From contig SFLE01000009.1 in the NCBI GenBank assembly GCA_004553495.1, positions 33,616 to 97,615 of the forward strand: 64,000 nt of DNA, in the 5' to 3' direction. Every line of letters starts with the position of its first letter. Position 1 is the stretch's first letter. The notes under the pieces are model-generated. The model ran no database searches and had not been told where the DNA came from. It saw only the letters and a list, made by a program, of their open reading frames with translations. A program made the translations under genes and the position numbers. Shown here one piece after another: positions 11,542 through 35,291 of this stretch. This DNA is from Clostridiales bacterium. Lineage in GTDB: Bacteria; Bacillota; Clostridia; Oscillospirales; Oscillospiraceae.

Positions 11542-11617
<76 letters not shown>

Positions 11618-11649
11618 AAAGCTGATGCCCCTCTTTCAAGGGGCATCTG

Positions 11650-19183: not shown

Positions 19184-19186
19184 TTC

Positions 19187-19675: not shown

Positions 19676-19690
19676 GTAAAGTACCTCGCA

Positions 19691-20494: not shown

Positions 20495-20584
20495 TTATAT
20501 CACCTCAAAATCGGAGAAATTATAACATACGCAATACTGTGCTTCAAGGCGAAAACTGTTAAAATAGTGACCGAAGTGTTAAAA

Positions 20585-20613
20585 TTGCCTGCCCAATGAG
20601 TATCAGGCAGGCG
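20585..20613 (-). terminator. Probable terminator of the acyl-CoA ligase gene
   Basis: GCCTGCC-N12-GGCAGGC hairpin just after the stop, with a weak T-run on the minus strand. Confidence 0.5.
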
Positions 20614-20620
20614 ATTATCA

Positions 20621-22363
20621 TTAAGCCTTGAACTGCTCCTCTGCTTTGCGCTTGGCCTCCTCTTCCTCCTCGAGAACGCGGTAAGCGACCTTGCCGACGA
20701 GCGTTTTCGGCAGCTCGCGGCGAAACTCGATGTCATACGGCATCGCGTATTTCGCAATGTTCTTGCGGCAGTATGCAAGAATGGCTTCCTTGGTCTTGGG
20801 GCTTTCGGGAACGCCGGGCTTGAGCATAACGAACGCCTTGACCTTATGCATCTTGTAGGGGTCGGGAACGCCGATGATGCAGCTCATGTGCACATACTCA
20901 TGAGCGTCGAGGATATTTTCGAGCTGACCGGGATAGACATTGTAGCCGGAGGTGATTATCATTCTCTTGGCGCGGCCCTTGAAGTAGATAAAGCCCTCGT
21001 CGTCCATCATGCCGAGGTCACCCGTGTACATCCATGTAAGACCGTCGTCGTGCTTGCGCAGGGTCTGAGCGGTCTCCTCGGGGTGATTTACATACTCCAT
21101 CATAACGGTGGGACCGGCTATGAGGATCTCGCCCTCCTCGCCGTAGGGCAGCTCCTTATCCGTGCCGGGCTCGACTATCTTGTAATAGGTGTCGGGGAAC
21201 GGCAGACCGATGCTGCCCTCCTTTGCCATGTGCGGCGGGGTGAGGCAGCTCGCGGTCACGCACTCGGTAAGACCGAAGCCCTCGCGTATCTGTATCTTCG
21301 CGTTGTGGTCGTACAGGAACTTGTCGAACTTTTTCTTGAGCTCAATGGAGAGACTGTCGCCGCCGGAGAAAACGCCCTTGAGCGAGCTGAGGTCTGCTTT
21401 ATCCATGCTCGGCAGCCTGAGCAGCGCCTCGTAAAGCGTGGGAACGCCGGCGATGAAGTTGCAGTGGTATTTCGTTATCTGCTTTGCGTAGGTCTCGGCG
21501 GTGAAGCGAGGGATGAGGATGCATCTGCCGCCCTGCGAGAGCATCGTGTGGATGCATACGCCCAGACCGAAGCCGTGGAACAGGGGCATTGCCGCGAGCA
21601 TCTTGTCGCCGACGCGGAACATCGGGTTTGCCGCGATGACCTGCTGACCGAGGGCGTTGAAGTTGCGGTTTGAAAGCAGAATGCCCTTGGTGGTGCCGGT
21701 GGTGCCGCCGGAATAGAGGATAACGGCGGGGTCGGAGCCCGTGCGCTTTACCTTGTAATTATAGAAGCAGTGCCTGCCTATGTGCAGGAATTCTTTCCAG
21801 CGGATAACGGGCGCGTCCTCGGGGATCTTCTTTATCTTTCTGCCCTCGGTGAGCATATAGCCCGCCTTGACGGGCTTTGACAGCTCGTCCTTTATGCTGG
21901 CGATGACAATATTGACCACCTTGGTGTTGTGGCGGATGCTCTCAAACTTGTTGTAGAACTGGTCAAGAGTTATCGCCGTTACCGATTCCGACTCGTTGAG
22001 GTAAAACTCTATCTCTTTTTCCGCGGACAGGGGGTGGATCATGTTGCAGATGCCGCCGATGAGGTTAACGGCGTAAAACATCTGTATCGCCTGCGGGCAG
22101 TTGGGCATTGCGATGGTGACCTTGTCGCCCTCGCGAACGCCGATGGTGCGCAGCGACTTTGCGCACGCCTCGATCTCTTTTATAAGCGTCTTATAAGTAG
22201 TAGAACGACCCATGAAATCGAATGCGACATTATTTGGGTATTTTTCAGCAATAGCCTCTACAGCCTCGAACATCGAGCCGTCGAAATAGTCGAGAGTAAA
22301 GGGAACCTCGCCCAAGTGCGCCTTCCACGGCGCCTTGGCTGTTATATTCTCCATTTGCATCAT
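20621..22363 (-). CDS. AMP-binding enzyme, long-chain-fatty-acid--CoA ligase-like
   Basis: 580 aa. AMP-binding motif YSGGTTGTTKG, TGDLG, GYNVYP and the C-terminal lysine context LPKTLVGKV. Confidence 0.88.
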   Translation of the reverse strand: MMQMENITAKAPWKAHLGEVPFTLDYFDGSMFEAVEAIAEKYPNNVAFDFMGRSTTYKTLIKEIEACAKSLRTIGVREGDKVTIAMPNCPQAIQMFYAVNLIGGICNMIHPLSAEKEIEFYLNESESVTAITLDQFYNKFESIRHNTKVVNIVIASIKDELSKPVKAGYMLTEGRKIKKIPEDAPVIRWKEFLHIGRHCFYNYKVKRTGSDPAVILYSGGTTGTTKGILLSNRNFNALGQQVIAANPMFRVGDKMLAAMPLFHGFGLGVCIHTMLSQGGRCILIPRFTAETYAKQITKYHCNFIAGVPTLYEALLRLPSMDKADLSSLKGVFSGGDSLSIELKKKFDKFLYDHNAKIQIREGFGLTECVTASCLTPPHMAKEGSIGLPFPDTYYKIVEPGTDKELPYGEEGEILIAGPTVMMEYVNHPEETAQTLRKHDDGLTWMYTGDLGMMDDEGFIYFKGRAKRMIITSGYNVYPGQLENILDAHEYVHMSCIIGVPDPYKMHKVKAFVMLKPGVPESPKTKEAILAYCRKNIAKYAMPYDIEFRRELPKTLVGKVAYRVLEEEEEAKRKAEEQFKA

Positions 22364-22422: not shown

Positions 22423-22516
22423 ATTCTGAACAAAAAGTATAGAGCCGGAGCATTGGGCGGATTCAGGTAAGGAAAAATCGGCTTTGACCGGCTCTTTTCC
22501 GCCCATACTGCACAAA

Positions 22517-22552
22517 AATCTCCGGTAATACACAAAGTATTGCCGGAGATTT
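22517..22552. terminator. Hairpin terminator in the 390-bp intergenic region
   Basis: ATCTCCGGTAATAC-ACAAA-GTATTGCCGGAGAT (one mismatch), flanked by an A-run and a T-run. Confidence 0.6.
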
Positions 22553-22756: not shown

Positions 22757-24205
22757 CTATCTTAATTTAACGCAGTAGTAGGAGAGAAGATAGGTCTTTT
22801 CGCATTTGTAGGCGTTCCACACCCGGTCGGCAAGCTCCTCCGGCTCACCTGCTTTGCGCTGGAATGCGCGTATCTCCTCAATGACCTCCTGCATATCGTT
22901 TTCGCACGCCTCTTCGAGGTCGTAGAACCTGTCGCAATTGAAGTAGGCATACACCATAAGGCTGCGGTATTTGCCCTCGGGCTGGGAGTAAAACTCCGCG
23001 CGTATCTCCTCGACGAGCGCATCCAACCGCGCCATGTGCGAATATTTTATAGCCTCGATCTCCGCTGCGGCAAGAGCTTTCTTGTACTGCTGGCGGCTGA
23101 GGTCTCCCGCCTGGAGCAGGACCTCCTTGGCGATGTCGGTGTAGGTTGCCTCTTCGTTTATTATCCGCTGCGCGCCTTCTTTGAAAATGTTATAGTCCCA
23201 GCGTGAGGTGTCCACCTCGAGAAGCTCGTCTATCTCGCCGTGATAGTTTCCAGCTACCTGCATTATCTGCTCGGGGGTCATGTTCTGCGCGTAGTAATAG
23301 GACTTGAGCAGATCGTACTGCGCCCAGACAAAGCAGCCGAGGACGGCAGCCATAATGAGCATGAAATAAACAAACACCTCGGCAACGACCTTGCCTGTGG
23401 TTTTCTTGAGCTTGTTGCGGGGGCTTTCCTGAGTGTTTTTCAGCGACTCCGTCTGCGGGAGCTTGCCGGTGTTGAGATACTCGGCATAGGCATCGCATAC
23501 CTCATCGGGCTTTCCAAACATGACCATGCGGCCCTTGTCGAGCCACAGCACCTTGTTGCACTGATTTCTTACCGTTTGCAGCGAATGCGAGACCATGAGA
23601 GCGGTCGTGTCGCCGGAGTCTATGATGCTCTGCATTTTCTGCTGGCTGCGCTTGCGGAAGTCGCCGTCGCCGACGGCGAATATCTCGTCAAGGATGATTA
23701 TGTCGGGCTCCACCATGCTCGCAATGGCAAACGCTATGCGGCTTTTCATGCCGCTCGAGAGCGTTCTGAACGGACTGTTCTGGAACTCGCGCATATCGGC
23801 AAAGTCGATTATCTCATCGTATTTTGAGTCGATAAACTCTCGGGAATAGCCCATGAACGCGCCGCGGAGGTAAACATTCTCGCGCACGGTCATTTCGCGG
23901 TCAAAGCCTGTGCCGAGCTCGAGCAGCGCGCATATGCGCCCCTTCTTCTCAATAGTGCCCGAGGCGGGAGTGAGCGTTCCGCTGATGGCCTTCATCATCG
24001 TCGATTTGCCCGCGCCGTTTTTGCCGACAACGCCGAGCATATCGCCCTTTTCAAGCGAAAACGACACATTTTTAAGCGCCCAGAACTCGTTTGAGCGGGG
24101 GCTCTTTCCGAGTATGCGCTTTACGATATCCGAGGTCGAGCGCGAATCCTGCTTGCGGTAGCGCACCGAAACATCGTCAAGTACAAGGACTTTGTTTTCT
24201 TCCAT
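22757..24205 (-). CDS. tagH: Teichoic-acid/polysaccharide export ABC ATPase (TagH-like) with a C-terminal TM helix and extra domain
   Basis: Walker A GKNGAGKST, signature LSSGMKSR, Walker B IIILDE, then a TM helix (VFVYFMLIMAAVLGCFVWA) and a ~190-aa C-terminal domain. Confidence 0.85.
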   Translation of the reverse strand: MEENKVLVLDDVSVRYRKQDSRSTSDIVKRILGKSPRSNEFWALKNVSFSLEKGDMLGVVGKNGAGKSTMMKAISGTLTPASGTIEKKGRICALLELGTGFDREMTVRENVYLRGAFMGYSREFIDSKYDEIIDFADMREFQNSPFRTLSSGMKSRIAFAIASMVEPDIIILDEIFAVGDGDFRKRSQQKMQSIIDSGDTTALMVSHSLQTVRNQCNKVLWLDKGRMVMFGKPDEVCDAYAEYLNTGKLPQTESLKNTQESPRNKLKKTTGKVVAEVFVYFMLIMAAVLGCFVWAQYDLLKSYYYAQNMTPEQIMQVAGNYHGEIDELLEVDTSRWDYNIFKEGAQRIINEEATYTDIAKEVLLQAGDLSRQQYKKALAAAEIEAIKYSHMARLDALVEEIRAEFYSQPEGKYRSLMVYAYFNCDRFYDLEEACENDMQEVIEEIRAFQRKAGEPEELADRVWNAYKCEKTYLLSYYCVKLR

Positions 24206-24217
24206 ATCGCCGCCTCC

Positions 24218-24988
24218 TTACACATACAGCGCGATCTTGTCGCGCGCGATGCGGTAGGTGAACCAGCCGATGAATGCGCAGAAAGCCGCCATTACAAAGA
24301 GAATGAGGTGCGTGGATATCGACGGTACCGTGGAATGGATTATAAGCTGGCGGAAGTAGTCAACGCACATATACAGCGGGTTGCAGTTTAAAAGCCTGCG
24401 CATTATGCCGGGCAGGATGGAAACATCGTAGAATATCGCGGAGGCGTACATTATGATCCTTGTTATAACGGGCCAGAGGTAGTTTACATCGCGGAAGAAT
24501 ATGTACACCGTGCTCAAAAACATCCCGATGCCGAAGTTTATGAAATAAAGGCACGCCATGGGATAGAGAAGATACACGAACCGCCAGTGGAACTCGATGC
24601 CGTCAACGGCGACGAAAATGAAAAATACCAGCAGCGAAACAAAAAAGTCTATCGCCTGAGCAACGCTCTGCGATATGAGGAAATAATGCTTGGGAACGGG
24701 GACCTTGCTGAATATCGGCGCATTATCGTACAAAACCTTCATCGAGCCGCGCGTTGCGGAGGAGAAGTAGTTGAAAAGCAGCAGACCGCAGAACAGGTAT
24801 ATCGTGTAGTGCGGCATGTTGCGTCCGAAAAATGTGCCGAAAACCACATCCATGGTCAGCAGCAGAAACAGCGGCGAAAGAGCGCTCCACAGTATTCCGA
24901 AGGTGGTGCGCTTATACTTTTTTATGAAATCCCGCCTTATAAGTTCAGCAAGAAGAAAGCCCTTATTGGTCGTCTTGTCCGAAGTCAT
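24218..24988 (-). CDS. tagG: ABC-2 type polysaccharide/teichoic-acid export permease (TagG-like)
   Basis: 256 aa with 6 predicted TM helices. N-terminal RRDFIKKYKRTTFGILWSALSPL is typical of ABC-2 permeases. Lies 12 nt upstream of tagH. Confidence 0.85.
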   Translation of the reverse strand: MTSDKTTNKGFLLAELIRRDFIKKYKRTTFGILWSALSPLFLLLTMDVVFGTFFGRNMPHYTIYLFCGLLLFNYFSSATRGSMKVLYDNAPIFSKVPVPKHYFLISQSVAQAIDFFVSLLVFFIFVAVDGIEFHWRFVYLLYPMACLYFINFGIGMFLSTVYIFFRDVNYLWPVITRIIMYASAIFYDVSILPGIMRRLLNCNPLYMCVDYFRQLIIHSTVPSISTHLILFVMAAFCAFIGWFTYRIARDKIALYV

Positions 24989-25080
24989 AGGTTAAAAGTT
25001 CTCCTTAAAAAAGACCGTGCACAATGACACAATTGAATACAATCATGTCATTATAACACAGTCCTACGCATAATTCCATA

Positions 25081-25677
25081 TTAATTTTTCGACGCAAAGC
25101 CGAGGTAGTCCTCGGGGGAATTGAAGTCGCGGGTGAAGCTGTCGAGCACAATGTAGTCCGAGCTTATGTCTCTGCCCATGAGCGGGAGACCGGCATACAG
25201 GTGATAAACCTGCCAGCCCTTGCACTCTGAGATCTCGCCCTCAACATAGCGTCTGCGCACCTCAAGGTAAAGGTCTTTAAACAGCGCCCCGTCCTTTATG
25301 AGCACCGCGCATATGCTGTCGCGGCTTCCGAAAAACAGCACGGGAGAAATGCCGCGGCGGGATACTATCGTTTCCATCGCCTGCTCGGAGTAGAGCACAT
25401 CACCGTAGAGAAAGCACATATCGTCCTCTATCAGCTCGGCTGTGAAGCGGTCTATCTCCAGAACATTATTTTTCGGCTCATAGCGCTCGGCACCGGCTAT
25501 TGAGAGGGAGACATCGTGCGAGGTGATGATGACCTCGGCTGATTTATCGTACTCGTGCACAAGGCGAACGGTGCGTTCGATCAGCGTTTCGCCCTCAATG
25601 CGTATGCGGTGCTTTGAGTGACCCATGAAATTGTTCCACCGGCTGCCCTTGCCGTCAGCCATTATGACATACTTCAT
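25081..25677 (-). CDS. Nucleotidyltransferase (GT-A-like NTP-transferase fold, LicC/MobA-like)
   Basis: N-terminal VIMADGKGSRW matches the (M/L)A.G.G.R NTP-binding loop of sugar/alcohol-phosphate nucleotidyltransferases. Its start overlaps the upstream stop (ATGA). Substrate unknown. Confidence 0.6.
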   Translation of the reverse strand: MKYVIMADGKGSRWNNFMGHSKHRIRIEGETLIERTVRLVHEYDKSAEVIITSHDVSLSIAGAERYEPKNNVLEIDRFTAELIEDDMCFLYGDVLYSEQAMETIVSRRGISPVLFFGSRDSICAVLIKDGALFKDLYLEVRRRYVEGEISECKGWQVYHLYAGLPLMGRDISSDYIVLDSFTRDFNSPEDYLGFASKN

Positions 25678-26723
25678 TTGATTATACCATGCTCGCGGTA
25701 AAATTCGCCCAGTCTGCCATAGCGCTGGGGTCCCCAGAGCTGAATGATGTTAACGCCCGAGGAGGTGTTGGCCTCTATAACGGTGAAGCCCTCGTCGGTG
25801 GGGAGTATGTCCCACGCGATTATGTCAAGGTAGGGAAAATTGCGGCTTGCATCGAGAACGCCCGCCTTTATCGCATCCCAGTTGGGGATGGTTACGCCCT
25901 CTATGGGTGCGCCGGTGTCTGGGTGAGTTTCGTAAACGGTGAGGTTATGCAGGGTGCGCGCATGACTCATTTTGCCCGAGGCAATATCGACATTGGCGAC
26001 AAGCCCGCCGCGGCTGCCGTTATCGACTGCGCCCGTCCACGCAGCGCCTATGCGCTGAACGGCAAAGCACAGCTCAAACTCTTTCGTTTCGGCTGAGCGC
26101 AGAACTATCATGCGCAGGGTGTTTGCAGAGTTTGCGTATATCTTATTGAGGTATTCTGCCTGTACGGCATAGGCGCAGATGAGCCACTCGTTATCGTGCT
26201 CGAGGCGCGCCTTCAGCTCGGCTTCCGTGTGAGGCTCATCGTTTAGGATGATGCCGTGACCGTTATACTTTACAATGTAAACGCCCTTGCCCTTGCCTGC
26301 GCGAACGGGCTTTACGACGAATGCGCCGGTCTCGTGCAGAAGCGTTATAAGGTCGTCATAGCCGTTTATCACCCTGCCGTTCATACCGGCAAGGCGCTTA
26401 TCCTTTTTGACGCAGTATATCTCCGGCGTTTTGCAGTAGCGCTCGACTATCTGCGTAAAAACTACCTTATTATTGAGCATTTCACTGTACGGGTCGTTTA
26501 TGCACCGCGAGCGATACCAGTCAAACTCGGAAAGATACTGCTTTTTGTCGTTGTGCTTAAAGTCGTACATGGCGGCCTGATCTACCATGTAGCCGCCGAA
26601 AATGCAGTAGTAAAGCCTTGTGTGGAGCGGGAGCTTAAAGTGATTCGGCGCAAACAGTATCCTCACTATCCACAGTACTATCAATTTGATTTTGGCGAGC
26701 AATATGCTCAGAAATCGCATCAT
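25674..26723 (-). CDS. ATP-grasp ligase, 'sugar-transfer associated' type (single domain, catalytic motifs intact)
   Basis: FVVKPVRAGKGKGVYIV (ATP-binding Lys/Gly loop), LRMIVL, DNGSRGGLVANVD, HPDTGAPIEG, FTVIEANTSSG (E-x-N Mg site). The start is uncertain: 26723/26720 overlaps the tagF-like gene by ~89 nt, and the alternative ATG at 26588 does not. Confidence 0.7.
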   Translation of the reverse strand: MMRFLSILLAKIKLIVLWIVRILFAPNHFKLPLHTRLYYCIFGGYMVDQAAMYDFKHNDKKQYLSEFDWYRSRCINDPYSEMLNNKVVFTQIVERYCKTPEIYCVKKDKRLAGMNGRVINGYDDLITLLHETGAFVVKPVRAGKGKGVYIVKYNGHGIILNDEPHTEAELKARLEHDNEWLICAYAVQAEYLNKIYANSANTLRMIVLRSAETKEFELCFAVQRIGAAWTGAVDNGSRGGLVANVDIASGKMSHARTLHNLTVYETHPDTGAPIEGVTIPNWDAIKAGVLDASRNFPYLDIIAWDILPTDEGFTVIEANTSSGVNIIQLWGPQRYGRLGEFYREHGIIK

Positions 26724-27846
26724 GTTTATCTCTCTCCATACAGTCGATTATAAGTCCGGCGATCTTGTCGGTGGCTCTGCCGTTCTGATCGGGCAGATAC
26801 TTGCGGCAGAAGCGGCGGTAGTTATCCATGTCGTATTCGCCGCTGTCTATAGCGTCGGCGAGCTTTTCCGGATCGCGGAATATGCAGTCGGGAAATTCGT
26901 CGAAGAGCTTTACATTAAGCCCGTTGTGGTCGAGGTAATCCTCGTAGTCGAACAGGTAGAAGTAAACGGGCTTGCCGAGCAGCGCGGCTTCTATCGTTAT
27001 CGCGGAATAGTCGGTTATAACGCAGTCGCACACCGACAGTATCATCGAGGTCGGTATGCCTGGGCAGGTGAGTGCCGGCGCAAGGTTATCGACAACAAGA
27101 AGCTGGTTCGGGTGGCGTTTTATGATGAGCACCTGACTGCCGTCAAAGTGGAACGCCTTTACGAGCTCCTTGGGGTCGAGCGCCTGACCCTTGCGGAAGG
27201 TCGGCGCGTAGAGAACTATCTTCTTCCTGCGCAGTGTGGGGTAAATGTCGTAAAACTCGCGCTCTGCGTCCGCAACGCCCTCGCGCAGCTTATCCATGCG
27301 CGGCAGACCGACATTGTATAGAATATCGGGCTCGATGTCGAACGAGGCGCAGTAGAACGGATTAAACGCCCTGCCGCCCGCGATAACGACATCATAGTTG
27401 CGGTGCATACGCATCTGGCGCGCTATCACATCGCTTCTGCCGAATTTTTTGCCGAGCGACTGGTAGCCGGATTTTTTTATCTTGCCCATGGCGTGCCACA
27501 TCTGGATAACGGCGAGCTGCTTTTTGTGATGCAGCACCGACACCGCCGGCCAGTAGGAGTCGAGCACGCATACGCGCGCCGTTGCGAGATGGTACATACT
27601 GCGCAGCGTTGCTATCGAGTAGGAGAGCAGATTGCCGATGCCCTTGTCAATGCGCTTTGTTATCATGACTATTCTGACATCGGGCTTGAGCTCTTCGAGC
27701 CTGCGGGCGAGGAAATCAAAATCCTCTGTGACGGTGTTCGACTGGCGGCTGAGGAATATGACCTTGTTGCGGTCGGTGGGGAAGAGCTTCAGAAAAAAGT
27801 AGATGAAGTTCATGACCCAGCGAAGCAGAGTTATGGCTATTTTCAT
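26635..27846 (-). CDS. CDP-glycerol glycerophosphotransferase family protein (TagB/TagF-like)
   Basis: VLYAPTFR, KRHPNQ and ITDYSAITIEAALLGKPVYFYLFDYEDY are Glyphos_transf hallmarks. Confidence 0.85.
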   Translation of the reverse strand: MKIAITLLRWVMNFIYFFLKLFPTDRNKVIFLSRQSNTVTEDFDFLARRLEELKPDVRIVMITKRIDKGIGNLLSYSIATLRSMYHLATARVCVLDSYWPAVSVLHHKKQLAVIQMWHAMGKIKKSGYQSLGKKFGRSDVIARQMRMHRNYDVVIAGGRAFNPFYCASFDIEPDILYNVGLPRMDKLREGVADAEREFYDIYPTLRRKKIVLYAPTFRKGQALDPKELVKAFHFDGSQVLIIKRHPNQLLVVDNLAPALTCPGIPTSMILSVCDCVITDYSAITIEAALLGKPVYFYLFDYEDYLDHNGLNVKLFDEFPDCIFRDPEKLADAIDSGEYDMDNYRRFCRKYLPDQNGRATDKIAGLIIDCMERDKHDAISEHIARQNQIDSTVDSEDTVCAESL

Positions 27847-27947
27847 AATGCCCCTCCGTTGTATGTATCGGCGCAGATCGTATTAAAACTTAAAATCAGC
27901 CTATTATACGATTAATGCACCGTTTTGTCACCCTAAAAATATTAACA

Positions 27948-29963
27948 TTAGCAGAGCTTTTTGCCTTGACGCTTGAGCTCAAGCTTATGCATGAAATAGG
28001 CGTGGACATTCTCGTTATATGTCGGATAGCGGTGCAGGTCCTGATGTGTGTTTATCTCCAGTATCTTAAAGCCTGAGTCGGTTATAACGACATCGAAGCC
28101 GAGATACTCCAGCGGGCTTATATACCGGCATATCTCCGCAACGGTGCTTACGACCTCGTCCCAGTGCGGTAGAGTGCCCTCTATGGCAATGCCGGTGTCC
28201 GGATGCGTGGGGCAGGGGGTTATGATGTGCTCCTTTATGACCTCGGCATCGTGGAAAACGCCGGTTTTCTCATCGACATAGGCAAAAACGCCGCCGGAGC
28301 CTATGTTGTCGGTAAAGCCCGTGCTTTCCGTGCCGATGCGGAAATATGCGTTTTCAATAACGGGGTCGAGACCCGTGCGGTTTATGACCATTATGCGCAC
28401 CGTGCACGCGACCTCACTGTAAATTTCGCGCAGATCGCGGTGCATGACGATGTACTCGGAGATGTTGTAGTAATCATTTAGCCCTGAGAGAAACGCGAGC
28501 ATCGCAGTCTCGCCCATGGCCTCATCGTTTACGATGTAGTGCTCTCCGCTATATTGCAGCTTGTAAAAGCCTATGCCGTGCGAGCCGACGGTGGGCTTCA
28601 TGGCAAGAAGCTTTTTATCGCGCAGGAGCGCCAGCAGCCCGTCAAAGCTGCGGGCATATTTTTCGGGGCAGTCCGGCATCTTCAGAAGCTGCTGCCTGCC
28701 GTCGCGCGGCACGATGTGGTAGTAATACTCCGGCAGATACCGGCTGTATTTATCCAGGCAGTATCTGAGCGTGACCTTATCCCACAGCAGCTTGCGGTAG
28801 TCGTTGTTGAGCGGCCTGAGCCACTTGTAGTCGCGGTCGGAGAGAAAGCTGCGGTAGTTTTCCTCCGTGAGACCGTACTGCCTTATGTGGTAGGATAAAA
28901 AACCGCGCTCGTGAGCCCATTTTTTCTCGGCGCGCGTTGTGAATTTGTCGTGATCGTCCTCACGCAGAGCCTTTTTCCAGCCGCGGTACATATAGTCCAT
29001 GAAGCCGTGCCTTTTGGCTCTGAGGCTCCACATATACCGGTCGATTATCGTGAGTGCTCGTTTGAAGCCGACAAATTTCGGCTTTGAGCGGCGCTTTAGG
29101 AGAATGAACTCCGCCGTTTTATCGTTGAAATGCTCGAGATATGTAAGGTCCGCGCCGGTATCGACCCGGTGTATCTTAAAGCCGCCGTCGGTAAGGCGCA
29201 GGGCAAAATTCAGGTACTCAAGCTCCGGAAACTCGGCTGCTATGCCGCGAAGCTGCGCCGTGATGCCGTCAAAGCCCGCGATAACTCCACCGTCGTATTC
29301 TCCGTGCTCGGAAACGGAGCTTATCTCGCGGTTCTGAGTGTACCAGTTTTGCGGTGCGCCCTCCTGCGGCTGCGTGAGCACGGAAAACAGAAATTCCGGC
29401 TCATCGCCTCTGTTTATGAACGCTATGTGCACCGTGGGCGCGAAGACCGATGCAGTTTGCTCGGCGATAAGCGTTCCGTCGGGTGCGTTCAGAAGCTTTT
29501 CCCGCACCGTGTCCGGAGCTTCGGGGCTGCCGTCTATCGTATATTCGCCGTCTCTGAAGGCGTAGATGTGCTCCTTTGTCTTAACAGAGTTTGAAGCGCT
29601 GCGCACGAGCACCTCACCCTTATCGCGGATAAGCCGCATCACGGCGTCGATGCTCTGCTCGGCTGAGCCGTTGAGCGGGAGTATGAACCTCTCGCCGTCG
29701 CGCGTGAGCAAGCTGTAGTAAAGCTCGGGCAGAAGCTCGGGGTGCTTGTCGAGCGCATAGCGCATGGACAGCATATCGCCGAAGAGCTTGTCAAACTTCG
29801 CGTCAAACGGAAGAAGCGAGAATATATCCTTGTCGCTCATGCCGATGTTGTTTTTGCGCTTGTATTTTTTTATGCTGTCAAGATACAGCCACTGACCGGC
29901 AGTGGCAAATGTAAAGCCGCGAAACAGCAGAGCGGCGCTTTTTATAAGCCTTGAAGCCCGCAT
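27948..29963 (-). CDS. Tandem ATP-grasp protein (degenerate N-terminal copy plus intact C-terminal 'sugar-transfer associated' ATP-grasp)
   Basis: 671 aa. C-half: LAMKPTVGSHGIGFY, DNIGSGGVFAYVD, HPDTGIAIEG, FKILEINTHQD. N-half has the same order of elements, but the E-x-N site reads FKIHRVDT and the Lys-loop is lost. Confidence 0.7.
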   Translation of the reverse strand: MRASRLIKSAALLFRGFTFATAGQWLYLDSIKKYKRKNNIGMSDKDIFSLLPFDAKFDKLFGDMLSMRYALDKHPELLPELYYSLLTRDGERFILPLNGSAEQSIDAVMRLIRDKGEVLVRSASNSVKTKEHIYAFRDGEYTIDGSPEAPDTVREKLLNAPDGTLIAEQTASVFAPTVHIAFINRGDEPEFLFSVLTQPQEGAPQNWYTQNREISSVSEHGEYDGGVIAGFDGITAQLRGIAAEFPELEYLNFALRLTDGGFKIHRVDTGADLTYLEHFNDKTAEFILLKRRSKPKFVGFKRALTIIDRYMWSLRAKRHGFMDYMYRGWKKALREDDHDKFTTRAEKKWAHERGFLSYHIRQYGLTEENYRSFLSDRDYKWLRPLNNDYRKLLWDKVTLRYCLDKYSRYLPEYYYHIVPRDGRQQLLKMPDCPEKYARSFDGLLALLRDKKLLAMKPTVGSHGIGFYKLQYSGEHYIVNDEAMGETAMLAFLSGLNDYYNISEYIVMHRDLREIYSEVACTVRIMVINRTGLDPVIENAYFRIGTESTGFTDNIGSGGVFAYVDEKTGVFHDAEVIKEHIITPCPTHPDTGIAIEGTLPHWDEVVSTVAEICRYISPLEYLGFDVVITDSGFKILEINTHQDLHRYPTYNENVHAYFMHKLELKRQGKKLC

Positions 29964-30050
29964 AGATGCCTCCGTTAAGTAGAGTAATGTATTATATCAT
30001 TATACTATAACAGCCGCGCGTTGGCAAATACTTATATTTCGCCGTCAGGA

Positions 30051-30079
30051 TTGAATTTTGTCGAGGCTTGTAATATAAT
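30051..30079 (+). promoter_or_regulatory. Sigma-A promoter of the divergent ATP-grasp/dehydrogenase unit
   Basis: TTGAAT (30051-30056), 17 nt, TATAAT (30074-30079). Confidence 0.7.
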
Positions 30080-30135
30080 ATAAAAGTTAAAATGGATATT
30101 TGCGCGTAATTCGCATTACAGAGAGGAGCGGCGAT

Positions 30136-32385
30136 ATGGGTATATTCGCAAGGATAAAACGAGAGGTGTTTATCCGCCCATGGCTGAGACAGGGCTATTC
30201 AAGACGCCTTGCCAACTCGTATTATAAAAAGGTATGTAATGATCTCAAGACGGATAACGGCGTTTCGGCGGCGGATAAGAAATGGGCTCACGAGCATAAA
30301 TACTTTTCCGACAGCATCGCAAAGTACGACCTTAAAAACGCGCCGGACAAGTATATAACCGACCTCGATTATATGTACCTCAAGCCCTTCAACAACAGCT
30401 TTACAAAGTGGGTGCGGGATCTCGTAACGGCGAACAAGGTGCTCATAGACTACCGCGAGTACCTGCCAAGGCTTTATTTCAACATCATTGAGCGCGAGGA
30501 CAAAAAGGTATTTCTGCCGATAGACACCATCGAGCGCGCCGATGGCGAGAATTATGATGATTTCATAAAGCTCCTCGACGAAAAGGGCGAGCTCATCATC
30601 CGTCCCGACCGCTTCTCGGCTTACCGCAGCGCGTACAGGATAGTGCGCACCGGCGATAACAGCTACAAGCTGTGCGAGGATGAGATATGCCGCGTGCGCA
30701 TGGGCATGCACGGGGATGATTACGACAGAGATTATCTGCTCAGCGAGGATTACCCCGAGGATCTGCCCGAGGAGTTCATGCCCAACCCCTGCAAGAGCGA
30801 CAGCTATGACAGAGACAGCCTCTATGAGCTCATCTCTACATTTAAATACGGCTATGTGATAGCCGAGCCCTACCGCGTAAAGCCCGAGGATATGGGCATC
30901 ATCCGCATTTATGTCGCAAACGAAAAGCTCAGGGATACGGAGCTTTTGGACTTTTATTACACGCAGCTTGACGGCGATAAGATAAACTGCCGCGCCGTAA
31001 CGCCCGACGGAATGCTCGACGGCGCAAAGCTCAGACAGTGGGACGAGATCTGCCGCGCGGTGGGTGAAATTTCGCATTTCATAAGCGAGATCGAGTATTT
31101 CTCCGTCGGCGTTATCCTCACCGAGGACGGCTTTGTCGTCGATTCCATCGACACGAATCCCGAGCTTCCACCGATAGCGCACAGCGAGCGTCTGAACGAT
31201 TATCTGCTCGCAAGGCTTGAGAAAAAGCGCGAAACGGTCGTCGTAACGCGCGAAAAGTGGTTCAAGGCGTTTAAGGATAAGCGCTTTAAGGCGTTCGTGC
31301 GCAGGTTCTGCCGCCCGGGTATGCGCTCGTATATGCAGAAGCTTTGGATGAGCTCCGTGTGGGACGATCTGCTGCACAATAAGGGGACCACTCTCGGGCA
31401 AAAGCTCTGGTGCTATAAGCGCGGGTTCATGTCATACAGGATAAAGCAATATGGACTCACGAAGGATAACTACAAGGACTTTCTCTCGGATTACCAGTAC
31501 CACTGGCTGAACAGGATAAACAACGGCTATCAGGTCTGGATAAACGACAAAACGACGACGCGATATGTGTTCGAGCCGTATAAGCAGTATTTCGCAAAGT
31601 ATTATTACGACATAATCAAGGTTGAGGGCGAGACCTGCATAAAGGCGCTTCAGGACATTCCCGAGGGCTACGGCGCGTCGTTTGAAGAACTGTTCAGGCT
31701 GCTGCGACAGGAGAAGCTGCTTGCGCTCAAGCCCTCCTCGGGAACTCACGGCGACGGGTTCTACCGCATGGAGTATGCCGACGGCAGGTATCTCATAAAC
31801 GGCGAGAAGATGACCGAGGACGAGATAACTCAGATGATAGAGTCATTTAAGTCGATATACATTATCACCGAGTACCTCTTCATGCACCGCGAGCTTAAGA
31901 AGATTTACCCCAATTCCGTCAACACCATCCGCGTTGCGGTCGTGAACCAGTCGGCATATGAGCCGAAGATAATGCAGACATATATGCGCATCGGCTCCTC
32001 GGCAACGGGCTTTACCGACAATGTCGGCTACGGCGGCATATGCGCGAAGGTCGACATTCCTACCGGACGCTACTACTGCGCCGAGCGGATAATCAACCAT
32101 AAATTCACGCCCTGCCCCATACATCCGGACACCGGAGTTGAGATAGAGGGCATCGTCCCCAACTGGGAGCTGATGAAAAAGGGCATAACCGACATATGCA
32201 ATTTCATGCCGGAGCTTGAGTACCTAGGCTTTGACATTGCGATAACCGATGACGGATTTAAGATAATCGAGATAAACATACATCAGGATCTGCACAAGGT
32301 AGCCGAGCATTCGGACGAGTTCAAGGCGTTCTTCCGCGATAAGCTCGCGCTCAAGGCACAGAAATATGAGCTGAAGAAATGGTAA
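30136..32385 (+). CDS. Tandem ATP-grasp protein, paralogue of 27948-29963 (degenerate N-copy plus intact C-copy)
   Basis: Start at ATG 30136 (RBS GAGAGGAG). C-half: LALKPSSGTHGDGFY, DNVGYGGICAKVD, HPDTGVEIEG, FKIIEINIHQD. In the N-half the E-x-N site reads FVVDSIDT. The C-halves of the two proteins look roughly half identical by eye. Confidence 0.7.
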   Translation: MGIFARIKREVFIRPWLRQGYSRRLANSYYKKVCNDLKTDNGVSAADKKWAHEHKYFSDSIAKYDLKNAPDKYITDLDYMYLKPFNNSFTKWVRDLVTANKVLIDYREYLPRLYFNIIEREDKKVFLPIDTIERADGENYDDFIKLLDEKGELIIRPDRFSAYRSAYRIVRTGDNSYKLCEDEICRVRMGMHGDDYDRDYLLSEDYPEDLPEEFMPNPCKSDSYDRDSLYELISTFKYGYVIAEPYRVKPEDMGIIRIYVANEKLRDTELLDFYYTQLDGDKINCRAVTPDGMLDGAKLRQWDEICRAVGEISHFISEIEYFSVGVILTEDGFVVDSIDTNPELPPIAHSERLNDYLLARLEKKRETVVVTREKWFKAFKDKRFKAFVRRFCRPGMRSYMQKLWMSSVWDDLLHNKGTTLGQKLWCYKRGFMSYRIKQYGLTKDNYKDFLSDYQYHWLNRINNGYQVWINDKTTTRYVFEPYKQYFAKYYYDIIKVEGETCIKALQDIPEGYGASFEELFRLLRQEKLLALKPSSGTHGDGFYRMEYADGRYLINGEKMTEDEITQMIESFKSIYIITEYLFMHRELKKIYPNSVNTIRVAVVNQSAYEPKIMQTYMRIGSSATGFTDNVGYGGICAKVDIPTGRYYCAERIINHKFTPCPIHPDTGVEIEGIVPNWELMKKGITDICNFMPELEYLGFDIAITDDGFKIIEINIHQDLHKVAEHSDEFKAFFRDKLALKAQKYELKKW

Positions 32386-32397
32386 AGGAGCAATGAA

Positions 32398-33381
32398 ATG
32401 AAAACTATAGGATTTCTTATAAGCCACAAAAACGGCGAGGGCAGACGCGCGCTGCTGCCCGAGCAGCTCGGCGAGATAAAAAATGTCGATAAGCTGTATT
32501 TTGAGGAGGGCTACGGTGATGCCGTCGGAGCTCTGGACGATGAGTACCGCGCAAAGGGCGCGAACATCGTTTCCCGCGAGGAGGCTCTTGCCTGCGACAT
32601 CATCACCGATGTCAAGCTCGGCGATGCCGACTACCTCGACGAGATAGCGAACAGCAAGATCATGTTCGGCTGGGCGCACGCTGTGCAGAATATAGAGTTT
32701 ACAAGCGATATGATCCGCAAAAAGCACACCGTTGTCGCTTGGGAGGAGATATTCGAGCACGGCAGATATATCTTCTACCGCAACCGCGAGGTCGCGGGCG
32801 AGGCGGCAGTGATGCAGGCGTTCCGCTACTGCGGCAAGATGCCGTATGATACGCATGTTGCAATCCTCGGCAACGGACAGACCGCAAAGGGAGCCATGCG
32901 CATTCTGAACGGTCTGGGCGCAAAGGTCGATGTATACAGCCACCGCCTTGAAAAGCTTTTCCGCAGAAATATGTTTGATTACGATGTGCTCATAAACTGC
33001 GTTATGTGGGATACCTCCCGCACGGACAGGATAATCTATAAAGAGGATCTCAAAAAAATGAAGCCCGGAACGCTTATAATAGATGTGAGCTGCGACCCGC
33101 ATCTTGAGATAGAGACCTCCCACCCGACGACGATAGACGACCCCGTTTACACCGTTGACGGCGTTGTGCATTATGCCGTTGACAACACTCCGGCAATGTA
33201 CCCCATCACCGTCACAAAGGTGCTCAGCGAGGGGATTGTAAAGTATATAGATACCATTATCGAGAAGGATTTCGACGAGTACCCCGAGTCGCTCAAAAAG
33301 GCGACCGTTATAAAGGACGGCGTTATCCGCGACGAGCGTATCGCGGAATTCAGAAAGAGCAGAGGAGTATTCTGCGAGTAA
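32398..33381 (+). CDS. AlaDH/PNT-family opine-type dehydrogenase, N5-(carboxyethyl)ornithine synthase-like
   Basis: 327 aa. The N-terminus IGFLISHKNGEGRRALLPEQL resembles the CEOS N-terminus as I recall it. Dinucleotide loop VAILGNGQTAKGA. 12 nt after the ATP-grasp gene. Assignment is from memory of the family and was not searched. Confidence 0.55.
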   Translation: MKTIGFLISHKNGEGRRALLPEQLGEIKNVDKLYFEEGYGDAVGALDDEYRAKGANIVSREEALACDIITDVKLGDADYLDEIANSKIMFGWAHAVQNIEFTSDMIRKKHTVVAWEEIFEHGRYIFYRNREVAGEAAVMQAFRYCGKMPYDTHVAILGNGQTAKGAMRILNGLGAKVDVYSHRLEKLFRRNMFDYDVLINCVMWDTSRTDRIIYKEDLKKMKPGTLIIDVSCDPHLEIETSHPTTIDDPVYTVDGVVHYAVDNTPAMYPITVTKVLSEGIVKYIDTIIEKDFDEYPESLKKATVIKDGVIRDERIAEFRKSRGVFCE

Positions 33382-33395: not shown

Positions 33396-34352
33396 ATGAC
33401 TGACGGTTACGGCAGAAAAATTGAATATCTGCGTATGTCAGTGACCGACGGCTGCAATCTGCGGTGCCGCTACTGTATGCCGCCGGACGGCATGGCGGAG
33501 TGCCCGTGCCGAACGGCGATGAGCGCCGACGAGTTTGTGGAAATAGCCCGCGCGGCAGCCGGTCTCGGCATGAAAAAGCTGCGCATAACCGGCGGCGAGC
33601 CGCTGGTGAGGAGCGATATAATCCCACTCGTGCGCGCTCTCGGAGCAATAGACGGCATCGAGGATATGAGCTTGACGACAAACGCAACTCTGCTCGCACC
33701 GTGCGCGGAGGAGTTGTATAACGCCGGCATACGCAGAATAAACATAAGCCTCGACACGCTGGTTCCGGAAAAATACGAGCGGATAACCCGCGGAGGCAGG
33801 CTCGCGGACGCGCTTTGCGGCATACATGCCGCGCTCGATGCAGGCATGAGCCCCGTTAAGCTGAACACCGTTCTGATAGGCGGGTTCAACGATGATGAGA
33901 TAGAGTCCCTTGCGGAGCTCACGCTGCGCTATCCGGTGCAGCTTCGGTTTATAGAGCTCATGCCCATCGGCAATACGGGTGACTTTCCGGCAACCGCGTA
34001 TCTGCCGGACAGCGTTGTGCTCGAGCGCCTGCCGCAGCTTGCGCCGGTGCCGAGTGAAAAGCACACCGTCGCGCGGCTGTTCAGACTGCCGGACGCCAAA
34101 GGCGAGGTGGGGCTCATAAGCCCCTTGAGCAACCATTTCTGCGCCGAGTGTAACCGTCTGCGCCTGACTGCCGACGGCTGCTTAAAGCCGTGTCTGCACT
34201 CTGCCGAGGAGCTTCCGGTGCGCGGACTGCACGGCGAGGAGCTGAAAAGAGCGATACTCACCGCGGCATCGCACAAGCCGGAAAAGCACGGCGCGCTCTC
34301 GGCGACCGAGCGCAGCGAGGCGCAGCGCAGTATGTACCGTATAGGAGGCTGA
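33396..34352 (+). CDS. moaA: GTP 3',8-cyclase MoaA (radical SAM)
   Basis: CNLRCRYCMP cluster, second cluster CAECNRLRLTADGCLKPCL, C-terminal GG. Confidence 0.93.
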   Translation: MTDGYGRKIEYLRMSVTDGCNLRCRYCMPPDGMAECPCRTAMSADEFVEIARAAAGLGMKKLRITGGEPLVRSDIIPLVRALGAIDGIEDMSLTTNATLLAPCAEELYNAGIRRINISLDTLVPEKYERITRGGRLADALCGIHAALDAGMSPVKLNTVLIGGFNDDEIESLAELTLRYPVQLRFIELMPIGNTGDFPATAYLPDSVVLERLPQLAPVPSEKHTVARLFRLPDAKGEVGLISPLSNHFCAECNRLRLTADGCLKPCLHSAEELPVRGLHGEELKRAILTAASHKPEKHGALSATERSEAQRSMYRIGG

Positions 34353-34356
34353 AAAA

Positions 34357-34791
34357 ATGGCTAAGATAGCTGCAATTTGCATAAGCGATGTGCGCGGGAT
34401 ACAAAAGCACGAGATACCCGCGGCGCATCTTCGTAAGGACTGGGGCATAGAGGGCGATGCCCATGCGGGAAACTGGCACAGGCAGGTGAGCCTGCTTTCG
34501 GTCACCAGCGTCGCAAAGCTTCAGGAAAAGCTCAGCTTTGAGCTGAAGCACGGCGCTTTCGCGGAGAATATCCTCGTTGAGGGCATGGCGGTGCACACGC
34601 TGCCGGTGGGCACAAGGCTGCGCATAGGCACGGCTCTGTGCGAGGTCACGCAGATCGGCAAGGAATGCCACAACGACTGCGCGATACGCAAAGCCGCCGG
34701 CGACTGCGTTATGCCGCGCGAGGGCATATTCGTAAAGGTCCTCGAATCCGGCGATGTCAAAACCGGAGACGAAATTACGATAGAAAGCTGA
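34357..34791 (+). CDS. MOSC domain-containing protein
   Basis: 144 aa; GIEGDAHAG...RQVSLLS...GENILVEG pattern of small MOSC proteins commonly linked to moaA in Firmicutes. Confidence 0.75.
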   Translation: MAKIAAICISDVRGIQKHEIPAAHLRKDWGIEGDAHAGNWHRQVSLLSVTSVAKLQEKLSFELKHGAFAENILVEGMAVHTLPVGTRLRIGTALCEVTQIGKECHNDCAIRKAAGDCVMPREGIFVKVLESGDVKTGDEITIES

Positions 34792-34794
34792 AAA

Positions 34795-34822
34795 GCAGCA
34801 CCCCGCCGGGGGTGCTGCTTTA
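34795..34822. terminator. Bidirectional terminator
   Basis: AGCAGCACCCC-GCCG-GGGGTGCTGCT followed by TTT. Confidence 0.8.
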
Positions 34823-34844
34823 ACATTTACGGCGGCGCCGTAAA

Positions 34845-35291
34845 TTATTTATCCAGTGCCATGTCCATGAGTGCCTGCTTTATTCTGAATACCTGAGTTG
34901 CCTGCGCAACGGTGAGGTCGTCGAGCTGCTTGTTGAGCTTGTCGATGGCATCCATCTGCGATGCCGTGAGCCCCGCTGCCGCGGGATTTTTCTGCGCGAT
35001 TATGCCCTCTGCCTCGTGTCGGGCATCGTCTATTATCTCCTCGGCGCGGCGCTTTGCGTCCGCCTCCACGCTCTCTGCGCGCTTCTGCACCTCGAGCAGG
35101 AGCTGAGCCATCTTTTCCTTGGAGGCATTTATCTGCTCAAGCTCCGAGCGCAAATGCTCGTTTTCCTCTATGATCTCACGCGCAGCCGCCTTTATCTCAG
35201 CCATTTTCGCATCGACCTTGTTGGCGTTATAGTACTTCTGCTTTGCTATATCAAAGCTTATATCGTTGAAAAAATCCATCGTTACAGACAT
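34845..35291 (-). CDS. DivIVA-domain coiled-coil protein
   Basis: Start at ATG 35289-35291 (RBS GGAGG). The N-terminal F..I.F......YN..KVD..M segment is followed by a long heptad coiled coil. Confidence 0.55.
   Translation of the reverse strand: MSVTMDFFNDISFDIAKQKYYNANKVDAKMAEIKAAAREIIEENEHLRSELEQINASKEKMAQLLLEVQKRAESVEADAKRRAEEIIDDARHEAEGIIAQKNPAAAGLTASQMDAIDKLNKQLDDLTVAQATQVFRIKQALMDMALDK

Follow-up and report, generated by a model that had tools for sequence, protein, structure and literature searches.

A predicted wall-glycopolymer locus of gut Clostridia that combines a TagF-like phosphotransferase with ATP-grasp ligases and an opine-type dehydrogenase

A stretch of 64,000 nucleotides from contig SFLE01000009.1 of a Clostridiales bacterium assigned to the Oscillospiraceae (assembly GCA_004553495.1; hereafter the window) carries, between positions 22757 and 33381, a locus that encodes on its minus strand a TagF-like phosphotransferase, a single-domain ATP-grasp protein of the Pfam family ATPgrasp_ST (AG1), a putative nucleotidyltransferase of 198 aa (NT198), a TagGH-type ABC exporter and a tandem ATP-grasp protein (AG2), and on its plus strand a second tandem ATP-grasp protein (AG3) and a short dehydrogenase resembling N5-(carboxyethyl)ornithine synthase (CEOS). 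We favour, with restrained confidence, the interpretation that this is a wall-glycopolymer locus of an uncultured bacterium from the human gut, and that its phospho-polyol polymer would be given, already in the cytoplasm and without Dlt, substituents of the amino-acid, short-peptide or N-carboxyethyl type, which would vary between close strains. An earlier description of this DNA, made from the letters alone (the sequence-only reading), had listed the same genes and proposed a glycerophosphate polymer decorated by ATP-grasp ligases. All genes of that string, with their coordinates, were confirmed by the open reading frame listing and by profile searches, and the assignments to ATPgrasp_ST, Glyphos_transf and ABC2_membrane hold in Pfam.

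The evidence that carries this interpretation is the conservation of the core cassette. AG1-type proteins were found in at least 226 stretches of a collection with one genome per species, and the counts given here refer to the best 80 species-level loci among them. A TagF-like gene was present in 73 of these loci, a member of the NT198 family directly after the ATP-grasp gene in 63, and TagH-like and TagG-like genes in 58 and 54, respectively, the order TagF-like, ATP-grasp, NT198 being almost invariant in the loci analysed. The cassette keeps this order in Oscillospiraceae, Lachnospiraceae, Eubacterium, Anaerovoracaceae, Bacilli and Coriobacteriia, and is carried by the isolate Emergencia timonensis SN18 (Anaerovoracaceae; locus L076). 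In distant genera the typical operon consists of genes for the TagF-like enzyme, the ATP-grasp protein, the nucleotidyltransferase, optionally a tandem ATP-grasp protein of 750-820 aa, TagG, TagH and LCP; the LCP gene (PF03816) after TagGH, seen in 11 distant loci, implies attachment to peptidoglycan in these genera. Moreover, the cluster representative P0361 (739 aa) joins Glyphos_transf to ATPgrasp_ST, its ATP-grasp part being 49% identical to AG1, and is a candidate natural fusion known from a single gene call. The gene order conserved across classes, the fusion and the LCP genes of the distant versions together make a strong guilt-by-association case for a common pathway of ligase, phosphotransferase and nucleotidyltransferase, which would usually end in export and peptidoglycan attachment. 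The tie between ATP-grasp and TagF/TagGH genes perceived in the window thus extends well beyond it. One lineage has the triad by itself, with no exporter nearby; its neighbours are ribF and a gene whose transglutaminase-like product has peptidoglycan-binding domains. A gene of the threonyl-tRNA synthetase type (581-666 aa) was also observed at the edge of the cassette in L048, L049, L050, L052, L053, L061, L074, L075, L076, L081, L083 and L085, either after the LCP gene or divergent from an ATPgrasp_ST–TupA fusion, and this adjacency may reflect inherited synteny or a functional link.

The ligases themselves are confidently assigned to their family, AG1 and the C-terminal halves of AG2 and AG3 scoring 140, 98 and 117 bits, respectively, against an ATPgrasp_ST cut-off of 31.4. 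Although the N-terminal halves of AG2 and AG3 had no Pfam match, BLASTP aligns each with its own C-terminal half at 22-24% identity, which bears out the earlier description of both proteins as tandem ATP-grasps. The five domains were aligned and judged against the invariant columns of 47 family members, namely the Lys-Pro plus Gly-rich loop, TxR, RIG, DN..GG, HPDTG, (W/F)D and ExN; in ATP-grasp enzymes the D and ExN bind magnesium. AG1 and both C-terminal halves retain all these motifs. Both N-terminal halves have exchanged the Lys for Arg, have lost the Gly-rich loop and have DN..GG and HPDTG deleted, and the magnesium-site residues are altered from D to A or G and from ExN to RvD or SiD (D to A and ExN to RvD in AG2); these degenerate domains are probably scaffolding or substrate-binding modules. 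Since sequence and profile searches of the PDB found no relative of AG1, the protein could be placed by fold comparison only. Its AlphaFold model (pLDDT 92.7) has an ATP-grasp fold, with 318 PDB matches at E ≤ 1e-3 of which the 50 best listed are all ATP-grasp enzymes, and the closest folds are those of the amino-acid ligases LysX/ArgX, RimK, Ddl and VanA, at a TM-score of only about 0.45. The sole NCBIfam match of AG1 is to a RimK-related glutamate-ligase model, far under its cut-off. As far as a predicted structure can tell, an amino-acid-ligase type is supported for AG1.

The same relatives open another possibility, that the system modifies the spore surface (crust or coat), the stem peptides of peptidoglycan or a protein C-terminus, and not a vegetative wall polymer. 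Protein C-termini are the targets of RimK and LysX, the relatives nearest in sequence and fold; in B. subtilis, SpsB, which is of the TagF family, and the ATP-grasps YheC and YheD are components of the spore crust or coat (PMC7725329); and the ATP-grasps of the window give weak ATPgrasp_YheCD matches. In addition, the cassette adjoins spoVAD and spoVAC in loci of the Anaerovoracaceae type, and transglutaminase-like proteins with peptidoglycan-binding domains recur nearby. Nevertheless, the spoVA adjacency is found in a single syntenic group of genera, the ligases have no conserved carrier-protein gene beside them, and in most loci the cassette comes with TagGH-type exporters and LCP proteins, the hallmarks of polymers that are exported and attached to peptidoglycan. 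We regard a spore, stem-peptide or protein target as improbable.

The TagF-like enzyme reaches 174 bits against PF04464 (cut-off 22.1), and its best PDB match is the catalytic domain of TarL (8va1; E 3e-29), with TagF also near. Equivalog level is not reached in NCBIfam, in which TarB is the best match (114 bits, cut-off 500), followed by TarL (104, cut-off 1000) and TarF (52, cut-off 550). The histidines of its QMWHAMG and IKRHP motifs align with those of IQTWHGT and LRMHYL in TagF, which we take to be the catalytic His444 and His584, and an ITDYS motif is conserved. With 403 aa, the protein is devoid of the N-terminal domains of the TagF and TarL polymerases. NT198 belongs to an unnamed family of proteins of about 198 aa, with 729 homologues found, in whose alignments the motifs MADGKGxRW (an N-terminal GxGxR loop), YGD and DFNxPED are invariant. 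Its own Pfam match is below threshold (NTP_transf_3/IspD, 20.1 bits for a cut-off of 27, E ~1e-3), some homologues do carry PF12804, and a profile search of the PDB with the family gave marginal matches only. The AlphaFold model (pLDDT 88) has as its top PDB match the phosphonate cytidylyltransferase PntC (TM-score 0.70), with further matches to RmlA, MobA, CobY, IspD, KdsB, CTP:inositol-1-phosphate cytidylyltransferase, LicC and 3-phosphoglycerate guanylyltransferase. From this fold NT198 is predicted to be a nucleotidyltransferase acting on a small phospho-compound and making a donor in which a phospho-alcohol is activated by a nucleoside diphosphate.

These matches also feed the main rival to a decorated polymer, a head-group pathway of the Lic type in which AG1 would build a small phospho-metabolite, such as an amino-alcohol phosphate bearing an amino acid in amide linkage, or an amidated acid of the phosphoglycerate or phosphoserine type, NT198 would activate it, and the TagF-like enzyme would add single head-groups to a glycopolymer with a backbone made elsewhere. 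Such a pathway would suit the best folds of NT198, since PntC and LicC-type cytidylyltransferases act on small amine-bearing phospho-compounds and 3-phosphoglycerate guanylyltransferase is among the matches. It would also suit the ATGA overlap of the AG1 and NT198 genes, the occurrence of the triad alone among housekeeping genes, away from exporter and backbone genes, and the primase-like size of the TagF-like enzyme, whose best NCBIfam model is the primase TarB; the substrates of the Campylobacter jejuni amidoligase Cj1438C are likewise phospho-amino-alcohols (PMC11800379). However, the triad usually has exporter and LCP genes joined to it, as would suit a dedicated polymer better, genes for a kinase or for making amino-alcohol phosphates were not seen in the loci, and the order of the reactions is not deducible from sequence. 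We consider the head-group pathway rather doubtful, and the spore or protein target and mere neighbourhood, discussed below, as lesser rivals.

The TagH-like protein combines a nucleotide-binding domain (residues ~1-260), one transmembrane helix (~272-296) and an extracytoplasmic helical tail of ~185 aa. Its best NCBIfam models are those of TagH, both below cut-off (189 vs. 538 bits and 171 vs. 320 bits), and the permease is closest to the galactan Wzm (62 vs. 380 bits). By their sequences, the two proteins would form a polymer exporter of the TagGH class without being TagGH equivalogs. No LCP ligase gene lies in the window's locus. The priming and linkage genes could lie elsewhere in the genome, and NT198 may replace TagD or TarI. 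That the polymer is a poly(glycerol phosphate) is not established: TagD, TagO, TagA and TagB were not found among the Pfam-annotated genes over most of the window, the TagF-like enzyme is nearest TarL and TarB, and NT198 has a LicC/PntC/IspD-type fold. In contrast, the reported absence of Dlt stands for the window, in which neither DltA nor DltC was seen. The only MBOAT gene of the window (50426-51826) was considered as a hidden DltB and rejected, its score of 153 bits being below the DltB cut-off of 375. It belongs to a plus-strand group (48856-52936) that encodes a transglutaminase-like lipoprotein, a DUF4358 protein, the MBOAT protein (466 aa) and an ALGX/DHHW protein. The MBOAT/DHHW pair (50426-52936) looks, from its families, like an AlgI/AlgJ-type system for O-acylation of a surface polymer, separate from the present locus, and not like DltB/DltD.

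Variation between close strains is suggested by the region next to the core. Close relatives, whose AG1 proteins are 60-96% identical, keep the core and the moaA that flanks it and vary in the space between, which contains either AG2, AG3 and the CEOS-like gene, the arrangement of the window; AG2 and AG3, with the dehydrogenase absent; a gene for a PGA_cap (CapA-like) protein plus one or two different ATPgrasp_ST genes; or a tandem TupA-like ATP-grasp of 653 aa. Relatives with a different cassette also have moaA at the border of this slot, which makes it a conserved right-hand edge. Accessory genes of other loci encode ATPgrasp_ST–TupA fusions, Mur-ligase-like proteins, alanine racemase, and transglutaminase-like proteins with peptidoglycan-binding domains. 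Judged by protein families, every alternative content of the slot would be amino-acid or peptide chemistry, and a slot that is hypervariable yet always ligase-bearing is what one would expect of strain-variable decoration of a surface polymer. Beside the triad of L054, L059, L069 and L072 there are open reading frames of ~670-980 aa for Mur_ligase_M/C proteins, the one of L059, which is the member scanned, being fused to BspA-type leucine-rich repeats, and an alanine racemase gene lies near the triad in L054, L059 and L077. The Mur-ligase-like and racemase genes are hints of amino-acid incorporation, possibly of D-amino acids.

As for its occurrence, an index of the assembly collection has the exact CEOS-like protein of the window in 204 blocks; six places were read, and all are on human gut metagenome contigs with the same gene neighbourhood. 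The closest credible genomes are uncultured Oscillospiraceae or Clostridiales metagenome-assembled genomes. Matches of 85-96% labelled Phascolarctobacterium, E. coli, Collinsella or Bacteroidaceae were discounted as almost certainly mis-binned, the other close matches being to Oscillospiraceae or Clostridiales metagenome-assembled genomes. Contigs of 49-96% identity whose labels include Hallerella and Alistipes 'cleanbin' (L007, L008, L018, L019, L021, L039 and L071) are probably binning contamination.

The dehydrogenase carries the domains PF05222 and PF01262 and remains below the equivalog cut-off for alanine dehydrogenase (AlaDH; 105 vs. 392 bits). When it is aligned with 2eez, Arg, Lys, His and Asp prove conserved at what we take to be the pyruvate-binding and catalytic positions of AlaDH, and homologues 73-77% identical to it are named N5-(carboxyethyl)ornithine synthase by NCBI and JGI. 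On these grounds it is predicted to be an opine (N-carboxyethyl amino acid) synthase. Its genomic company was assessed in a metagenome scan of 80 loci, in which neighbours were counted in lineages less than 80% identical to the window protein and dereplicated at 95%. The immediate neighbour of the CEOS-like gene was an ATP-grasp gene, TupA-like or ATPgrasp_ST, in 27/32 informative lineages, mostly in Wzx/Wzy polysaccharide loci or in TagG/TagH loci. In three relatives, L020, L037 and L046, a gene of the Octopine_DH family (PF02317, E 2.5e-40) lies 31 nt downstream of the AG3 orthologue, and in L036 the slot of the CEOS-like gene is taken by a different AlaDH-fold protein of 399 aa, also below the AlaDH cut-off. 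Enzymes of the CEOS and Octopine_DH families both make N-(1-carboxyalkyl) amino acids. Exchange of the two at one position is, on family assignment, a non-orthologous displacement between unrelated folds. Because two unrelated opine-forming folds share the slot beside the same ligase, the ligase/dehydrogenase pair is likely to make or attach an opine-type residue, and this displacement is the best evidence for it available here. The label of opine-type dehydrogenase given in the sequence-only reading is strengthened by it, as well as by the persistent ATP-grasp adjacency.

Residues of this kind are known from Gram-negative surface polysaccharides. The O-antigen of Providencia rustigianii O14 contains N-epsilon-[(S)-1-carboxyethyl]-N-alpha-(D-galacturonoyl)-L-lysine, amide-linked to galacturonic acid, alanopine occurs in Providencia O35, and many plain amino-acid amides are found on O-antigen uronic acids (PMC10609480). 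Our literature searches found nothing relevant linking opine dehydrogenases, ATP-grasp enzymes and polysaccharide clusters. A CEOS-annotated gene was also observed on the E. coli plasmid NZ_AP027746.1 (164124-179188; L176), in a cluster of WecA, Wzx, EpsG and glycosyltransferase genes with a nucleotide-sugar dehydrogenase. A hypothetical gene of 322 aa that overlaps the start of that gene, with ATP-grasp-like motifs by eye, was tested for being an ATP-grasp and gave no significant Pfam or profile match.

From families, folds, active-site status, gene order and coupling, and comparative associations, we infer the following chemistry for the decorated polymer. In a first module, on the minus strand and with a promoter-like site of its own, NT198 would activate a phospho-alcohol with a nucleoside triphosphate, probably CTP, and the TagF-like enzyme would move the alcohol-phosphate onto a lipid-linked acceptor primed by genes elsewhere in the genome. 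AG1, which is translationally coupled to NT198, would join an amino acid to the unit or to its precursor through an acyl-phosphate. In a second module, the TagGH-type exporter would carry the finished, already decorated polymer across the membrane. The third module is the slot between the core and moaA, in which AG2 and AG3 probably extend or diversify the substituent, and the dehydrogenase probably condenses pyruvate reductively with an amino group, which could belong to a free amino acid, for instance lysine or ornithine, or to one already attached, giving an opine-type residue.

Several observations weigh against this scheme. Plain glycerol-phosphate or ribitol-phosphate offers neither a carboxylate nor an amine, and for that reason the unit must be another compound unless the ligases make esters in the manner of VanA. 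Candidate units would be compounds of the phosphoglycerate, phosphoserine or amino-alcohol type, which are compatible with the PntC/LicC-like fold modelled for NT198. It is a tentative and by no means secure extension that abundant gut Firmicutes and some Coriobacteriia make a teichoic-acid-like polymer whose repeating unit, instead of plain glycerol phosphate, is a carboxylate- or hydroxyl-bearing phospho-alcohol loaded in the cytoplasm by ATPgrasp_ST enzymes with amino acids, short peptides and opine-type residues. In that case the ligase/opine-dehydrogenase cassette, swapped between close strains, would tune wall charge and vary surface antigens independently of Dlt, and would be the first genetic basis for opine-type residues on surface polymers. 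In addition, TagO, TagA, TagB, TagD and TarI/TarJ were absent among the Pfam-annotated genes over most of the 64-kb window, and the locus contains no uronic-acid or glycosyltransferase genes. The five ATP-grasp domains announced by the sequence-only reading comprise three that keep the catalytic motifs, and so have plausible ligase active sites, and two degenerate ones. Comparison of ATPgrasp_ST with the TupA-like profile by hhalign was not significant (E 0.07 over 27 columns), and searches for PF14397, ATPgrasp_ST and 'sugar-transfer associated' found no paper and no member characterised chemically or genetically.

The remaining adverse points concern the dehydrogenase, and they are also the ones that would suit an ordinary teichoic-acid-type locus in which the ATP-grasp and dehydrogenase genes are mere neighbours serving dipeptide, polyamino-acid or alanine metabolism. 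The protein has 31-33% identity with CEOS-annotated genes of Lactococcus (E ~1e-32) and 27-30% with alanine dehydrogenases, about the same for the two, and could simply supply alanine. In addition, moaA and a MOSC gene follow AG3 and the CEOS-like gene in tight succession, and one CEOS-like homologue adjoins genes of the AzlCD amino-acid exporter, with no ligase beside it. Mere neighbourhood of unrelated genes is nevertheless unlikely, and the ordinary locus with metabolic neighbours very much so, given that the order of TagF, ATP-grasp and nucleotidyltransferase genes is kept across classes and phyla, that TagF and ATP-grasp are fused in P0361, that an ATP-grasp gene adjoins the CEOS-like gene inside polysaccharide loci in the 27 lineages mentioned, and that an Octopine_DH gene replaces the CEOS-like gene at the same position.

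Among characterised systems, the nearest analogue of the decoration proposed for the window appears to be the TupA-like amidoligase Cj1438C. In C. jejuni, the TupA-like ATP-grasp of Cj1438 amidates capsular glucuronic acid with serinol phosphate or ethanolamine phosphate in an ABC-dependent capsule synthesis (PMC11800379), and for TupA-like enzymes, Proteus WemR among them, the addition of amino acids to surface polysaccharides has been predicted (PMC13419641). Cj1438C (PF14305, HS:2 capsule) resembles the window system in that its ATP-grasp ligase gene lies inside a surface-polymer locus with an ABC exporter, and its decoration, a small amine in amide linkage, is put on the growing chain in the cytoplasm, as is suggested here. 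TupA-like genes moreover fill the same variable slot in close relatives, are fused to ATPgrasp_ST elsewhere, and are usual neighbours of the CEOS-like gene. However, the enzymes belong to different Pfam families, the window proteins giving no PF14305 match; the carboxylate of the C. jejuni system is that of glucuronic acid, whereas uronic-acid genes are absent from the window locus; and Cj1438C is fused to a glycosyltransferase, whereas the window ligase is paired with a TagF-like phosphotransferase.

Compared with the wall teichoic acid systems of Bacillus and Staphylococcus (TagO/A/B/D/F or TarIJL, TagGH and LCP), the locus shares a TagF/TarL-family enzyme with aligned histidines, the TagH architecture of the exporter and, in distant versions of the cassette, LCP genes. 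It differs by the lack of TagO, TagA, TagB and TagD in the window, by TagH and TagG scores far below the equivalog cut-offs, and by an activating enzyme that is a 198-aa protein of LicC/PntC/IspD fold from an unnamed family. DltABCD adds its substituents outside the cell, whereas addition by ATP-grasp enzymes is predicted here in the cytoplasm. The pneumococcal LicA/LicC/LicD system is similar in the making of a phospho-head-group, its activation by a cytidylyltransferase whose LicC fold, like that of PntC, NT198 matches, and its transfer to a wall polymer; however, the transferase here is of the TagF family and not LicD, and the first enzyme would be an ATP-grasp ligase and not a kinase.

With the CEOS of Lactococcus lactis the dehydrogenase shares the short AlaDH/PNT fold, the conserved Arg, Lys, His and Asp and the annotation of its homologues, but its identity is low and it lies in surface-polymer loci beside ATP-grasp ligases, a setting for which we found no paper in the literature. 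The likeness to opine dehydrogenases of the Octopine_DH family lies in the substitution of one of its members for the CEOS-like gene in the three relatives. The amino-acid and opine amides of O-antigens are the same type of predicted product, a polymer with amino-acid or opine side groups (PMC10609480), although they are built on uronic-acid carboxylates in Gram-negative organisms, and the present locus is a TagF/TagGH-type one of Clostridia that has no uronic-acid genes.

Surface charge, adsorption of phages, autolysin activity, binding of cations and recognition by the immune system are all under the control of wall teichoic acids and polymers related to them. To our knowledge, DltABCD is the only well-understood route by which amino acids are added to wall polymers. 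If the interpretation favoured here is true, there would be a second, cytoplasmic way of aminoacylating them and an explanation for strain-level surface variation in dominant gut Clostridia. It would also provide the genes that underlie opine-type residues in surface glycans, and a function for the unnamed nucleotidyltransferase family and for the large orphan family ATPgrasp_ST, whose thousands of diverged members, among which we found none characterised, are reflected in the 50%-identity clusters that match AG1 (7451 representatives at E ≤ 1e-3 and 476 at E ≤ 1e-30). The pathway had been called undescribed, and our searches found no paper on ATPgrasp_ST itself, but the prediction that ATP-grasp enzymes decorate surface polymers is already contained in the Pfam family name and has been demonstrated for the sister TupA-like family, Cj1438C amidating a capsular sugar (PMC11800379). 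What is specific here is the cassette of TagF, ATPgrasp_ST and nucleotidyltransferase genes, the swappable ligase/opine-dehydrogenase slot, the recurrence in human gut metagenome assemblies and the existence of a cultured carrier. The system is testable, since Emergencia timonensis is cultured and the enzymes are small and predicted to fold confidently.

The features of the locus are collected in Table 1. The tight junctions reported earlier are real: the NT198 and AG1 genes overlap by ATGA (25674-25677), and gaps of 12 nt lie at 24206-24217 and 32386-32397. The hairpin between the TagH-like and FadD-like genes is likely a terminator that bounds the minus-strand operon. At the other side, the CEOS-like gene is followed after 14 nt by moaA and this, after 4 nt, by the MOSC gene, so that the plus-strand unit lacks a clean operon end at its 3' edge; these two genes are housekeeping neighbours outside the polymer system, probably co-transcribed with AG3 and the CEOS-like gene. 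No Moco riboswitch or other RNA was found at the moaA junction or in the divergent promoter region, Rfam giving zero matches in the locus. The ATG at 30136 is the AG3 start chosen by gene callers on identical metagenome contigs.

Table 1. Features of the predicted wall-glycopolymer locus and its borders (window positions, unless a locus is named)
Feature	Position	Strand	Evidence
16-bp perfect hairpin between TagH-like gene end and FadD-like gene	22516-22552
TagH-like ABC exporter ATPase, 482 aa	22757-24205	-	Pfam ABC_tran E 9e-25
TagG/Wzm-like ABC-2 permease, 256 aa	24218-24988	-	PF01061 ABC2_membrane E 8.6e-14
NT198, GT-A-fold nucleotidyltransferase (predicted), 198 aa	25081-25677	-	sub-threshold NTP_transf_3/IspD match and AlphaFold fold
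AG1, single-domain ATPgrasp_ST protein, 349 aa	25674-26723	-	PF14397 E 1e-40
TagF-like CDP-alditol phosphotransferase, 403 aa, catalytic domain only	26635-27846	-	PF04464 Glyphos_transf E 4.5e-51
Promoter-like site upstream of TagF-like gene, 11/12 matches	27903-27931	-	
AG2, tandem ATPgrasp_ST protein, 671 aa	27948-29963	-	
AG2 C-terminal half, intact ATPgrasp_ST domain	27948-29000	-	PF14397 E 6e-28, residues 385-644; motifs kept
AG2 N-terminal half, degenerate ATP-grasp-like domain	29001-29963	-	BLASTP vs. C-terminal half E 2e-19
Divergent intergenic region, 172 bp, promoter-like sites on both strands	29964-30135		
Promoter-like site in divergent spacer, 11/12	30027-29999	-	
Promoter-like site in divergent spacer, 10/12	30051-30079	+	
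AG3, tandem ATPgrasp_ST protein, 749 aa	30136-32385	+	
AG3 N-terminal half, degenerate ATP-grasp-like domain	30136-31320	+	BLASTP vs. C-terminal half E 9e-22
AG3 C-terminal half, intact ATPgrasp_ST domain	31321-32385	+	PF14397 E 1e-33; motifs kept
CEOS-like short AlaDH-fold dehydrogenase, 327 aa	32398-33381	+	AlaDh_PNT_N and AlaDh_PNT_C
moaA, MOSC gene and terminator-like hairpin	33396-34845	+	moaA: TIGR02666, 335 bits, above cut-off
Terminator-like hairpin 3' of MOSC gene	34825-34845		
Octopine_DH-family gene, L020	2831-3907	-	PF02317
Octopine_DH-family gene, L037	3141-4217	-	PF02317
Octopine_DH-family gene, L046	140-1216	-	PF02317

The locus had been described by eye as AT-richer than groEL or pncB. 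The direction was right and the difference is marginal, with a guanine-plus-cytosine (GC) content of 0.523 (52.3%) in the locus and 0.548 (54.8%) in the remainder of the window. A foreign origin of the locus was rejected, since the gap is just 2.5 points and the GC content at third codon positions matches that of housekeeping genes.

Some minor observations concern the gene models and the surroundings. The conserved 349-aa form of AG1 begins at 26723 and overlaps the last 89 nt of the TagF-like gene (26635-26723) in another frame; gene callers give AG1 as a protein of 336 aa instead. The TagF-like protein has a C-terminal tail of ~35 aa that is missing from distant orthologues (369-373 aa). 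Elsewhere in the window, a pair of adjacent tRNA genes on the minus strand (11545-11726) is unrelated to the polymer locus. At ~40.2 kb, the gene that follows the PTS EIIC gene is trmE in L001 and L003-L006, and in L002, from one metagenome sample, conjugative-element genes (DUF6017, DUF3801 and TraG/VirD4-like; 18166-20984) stand in place of trmE, a strain-level insertion just downstream of the locus.

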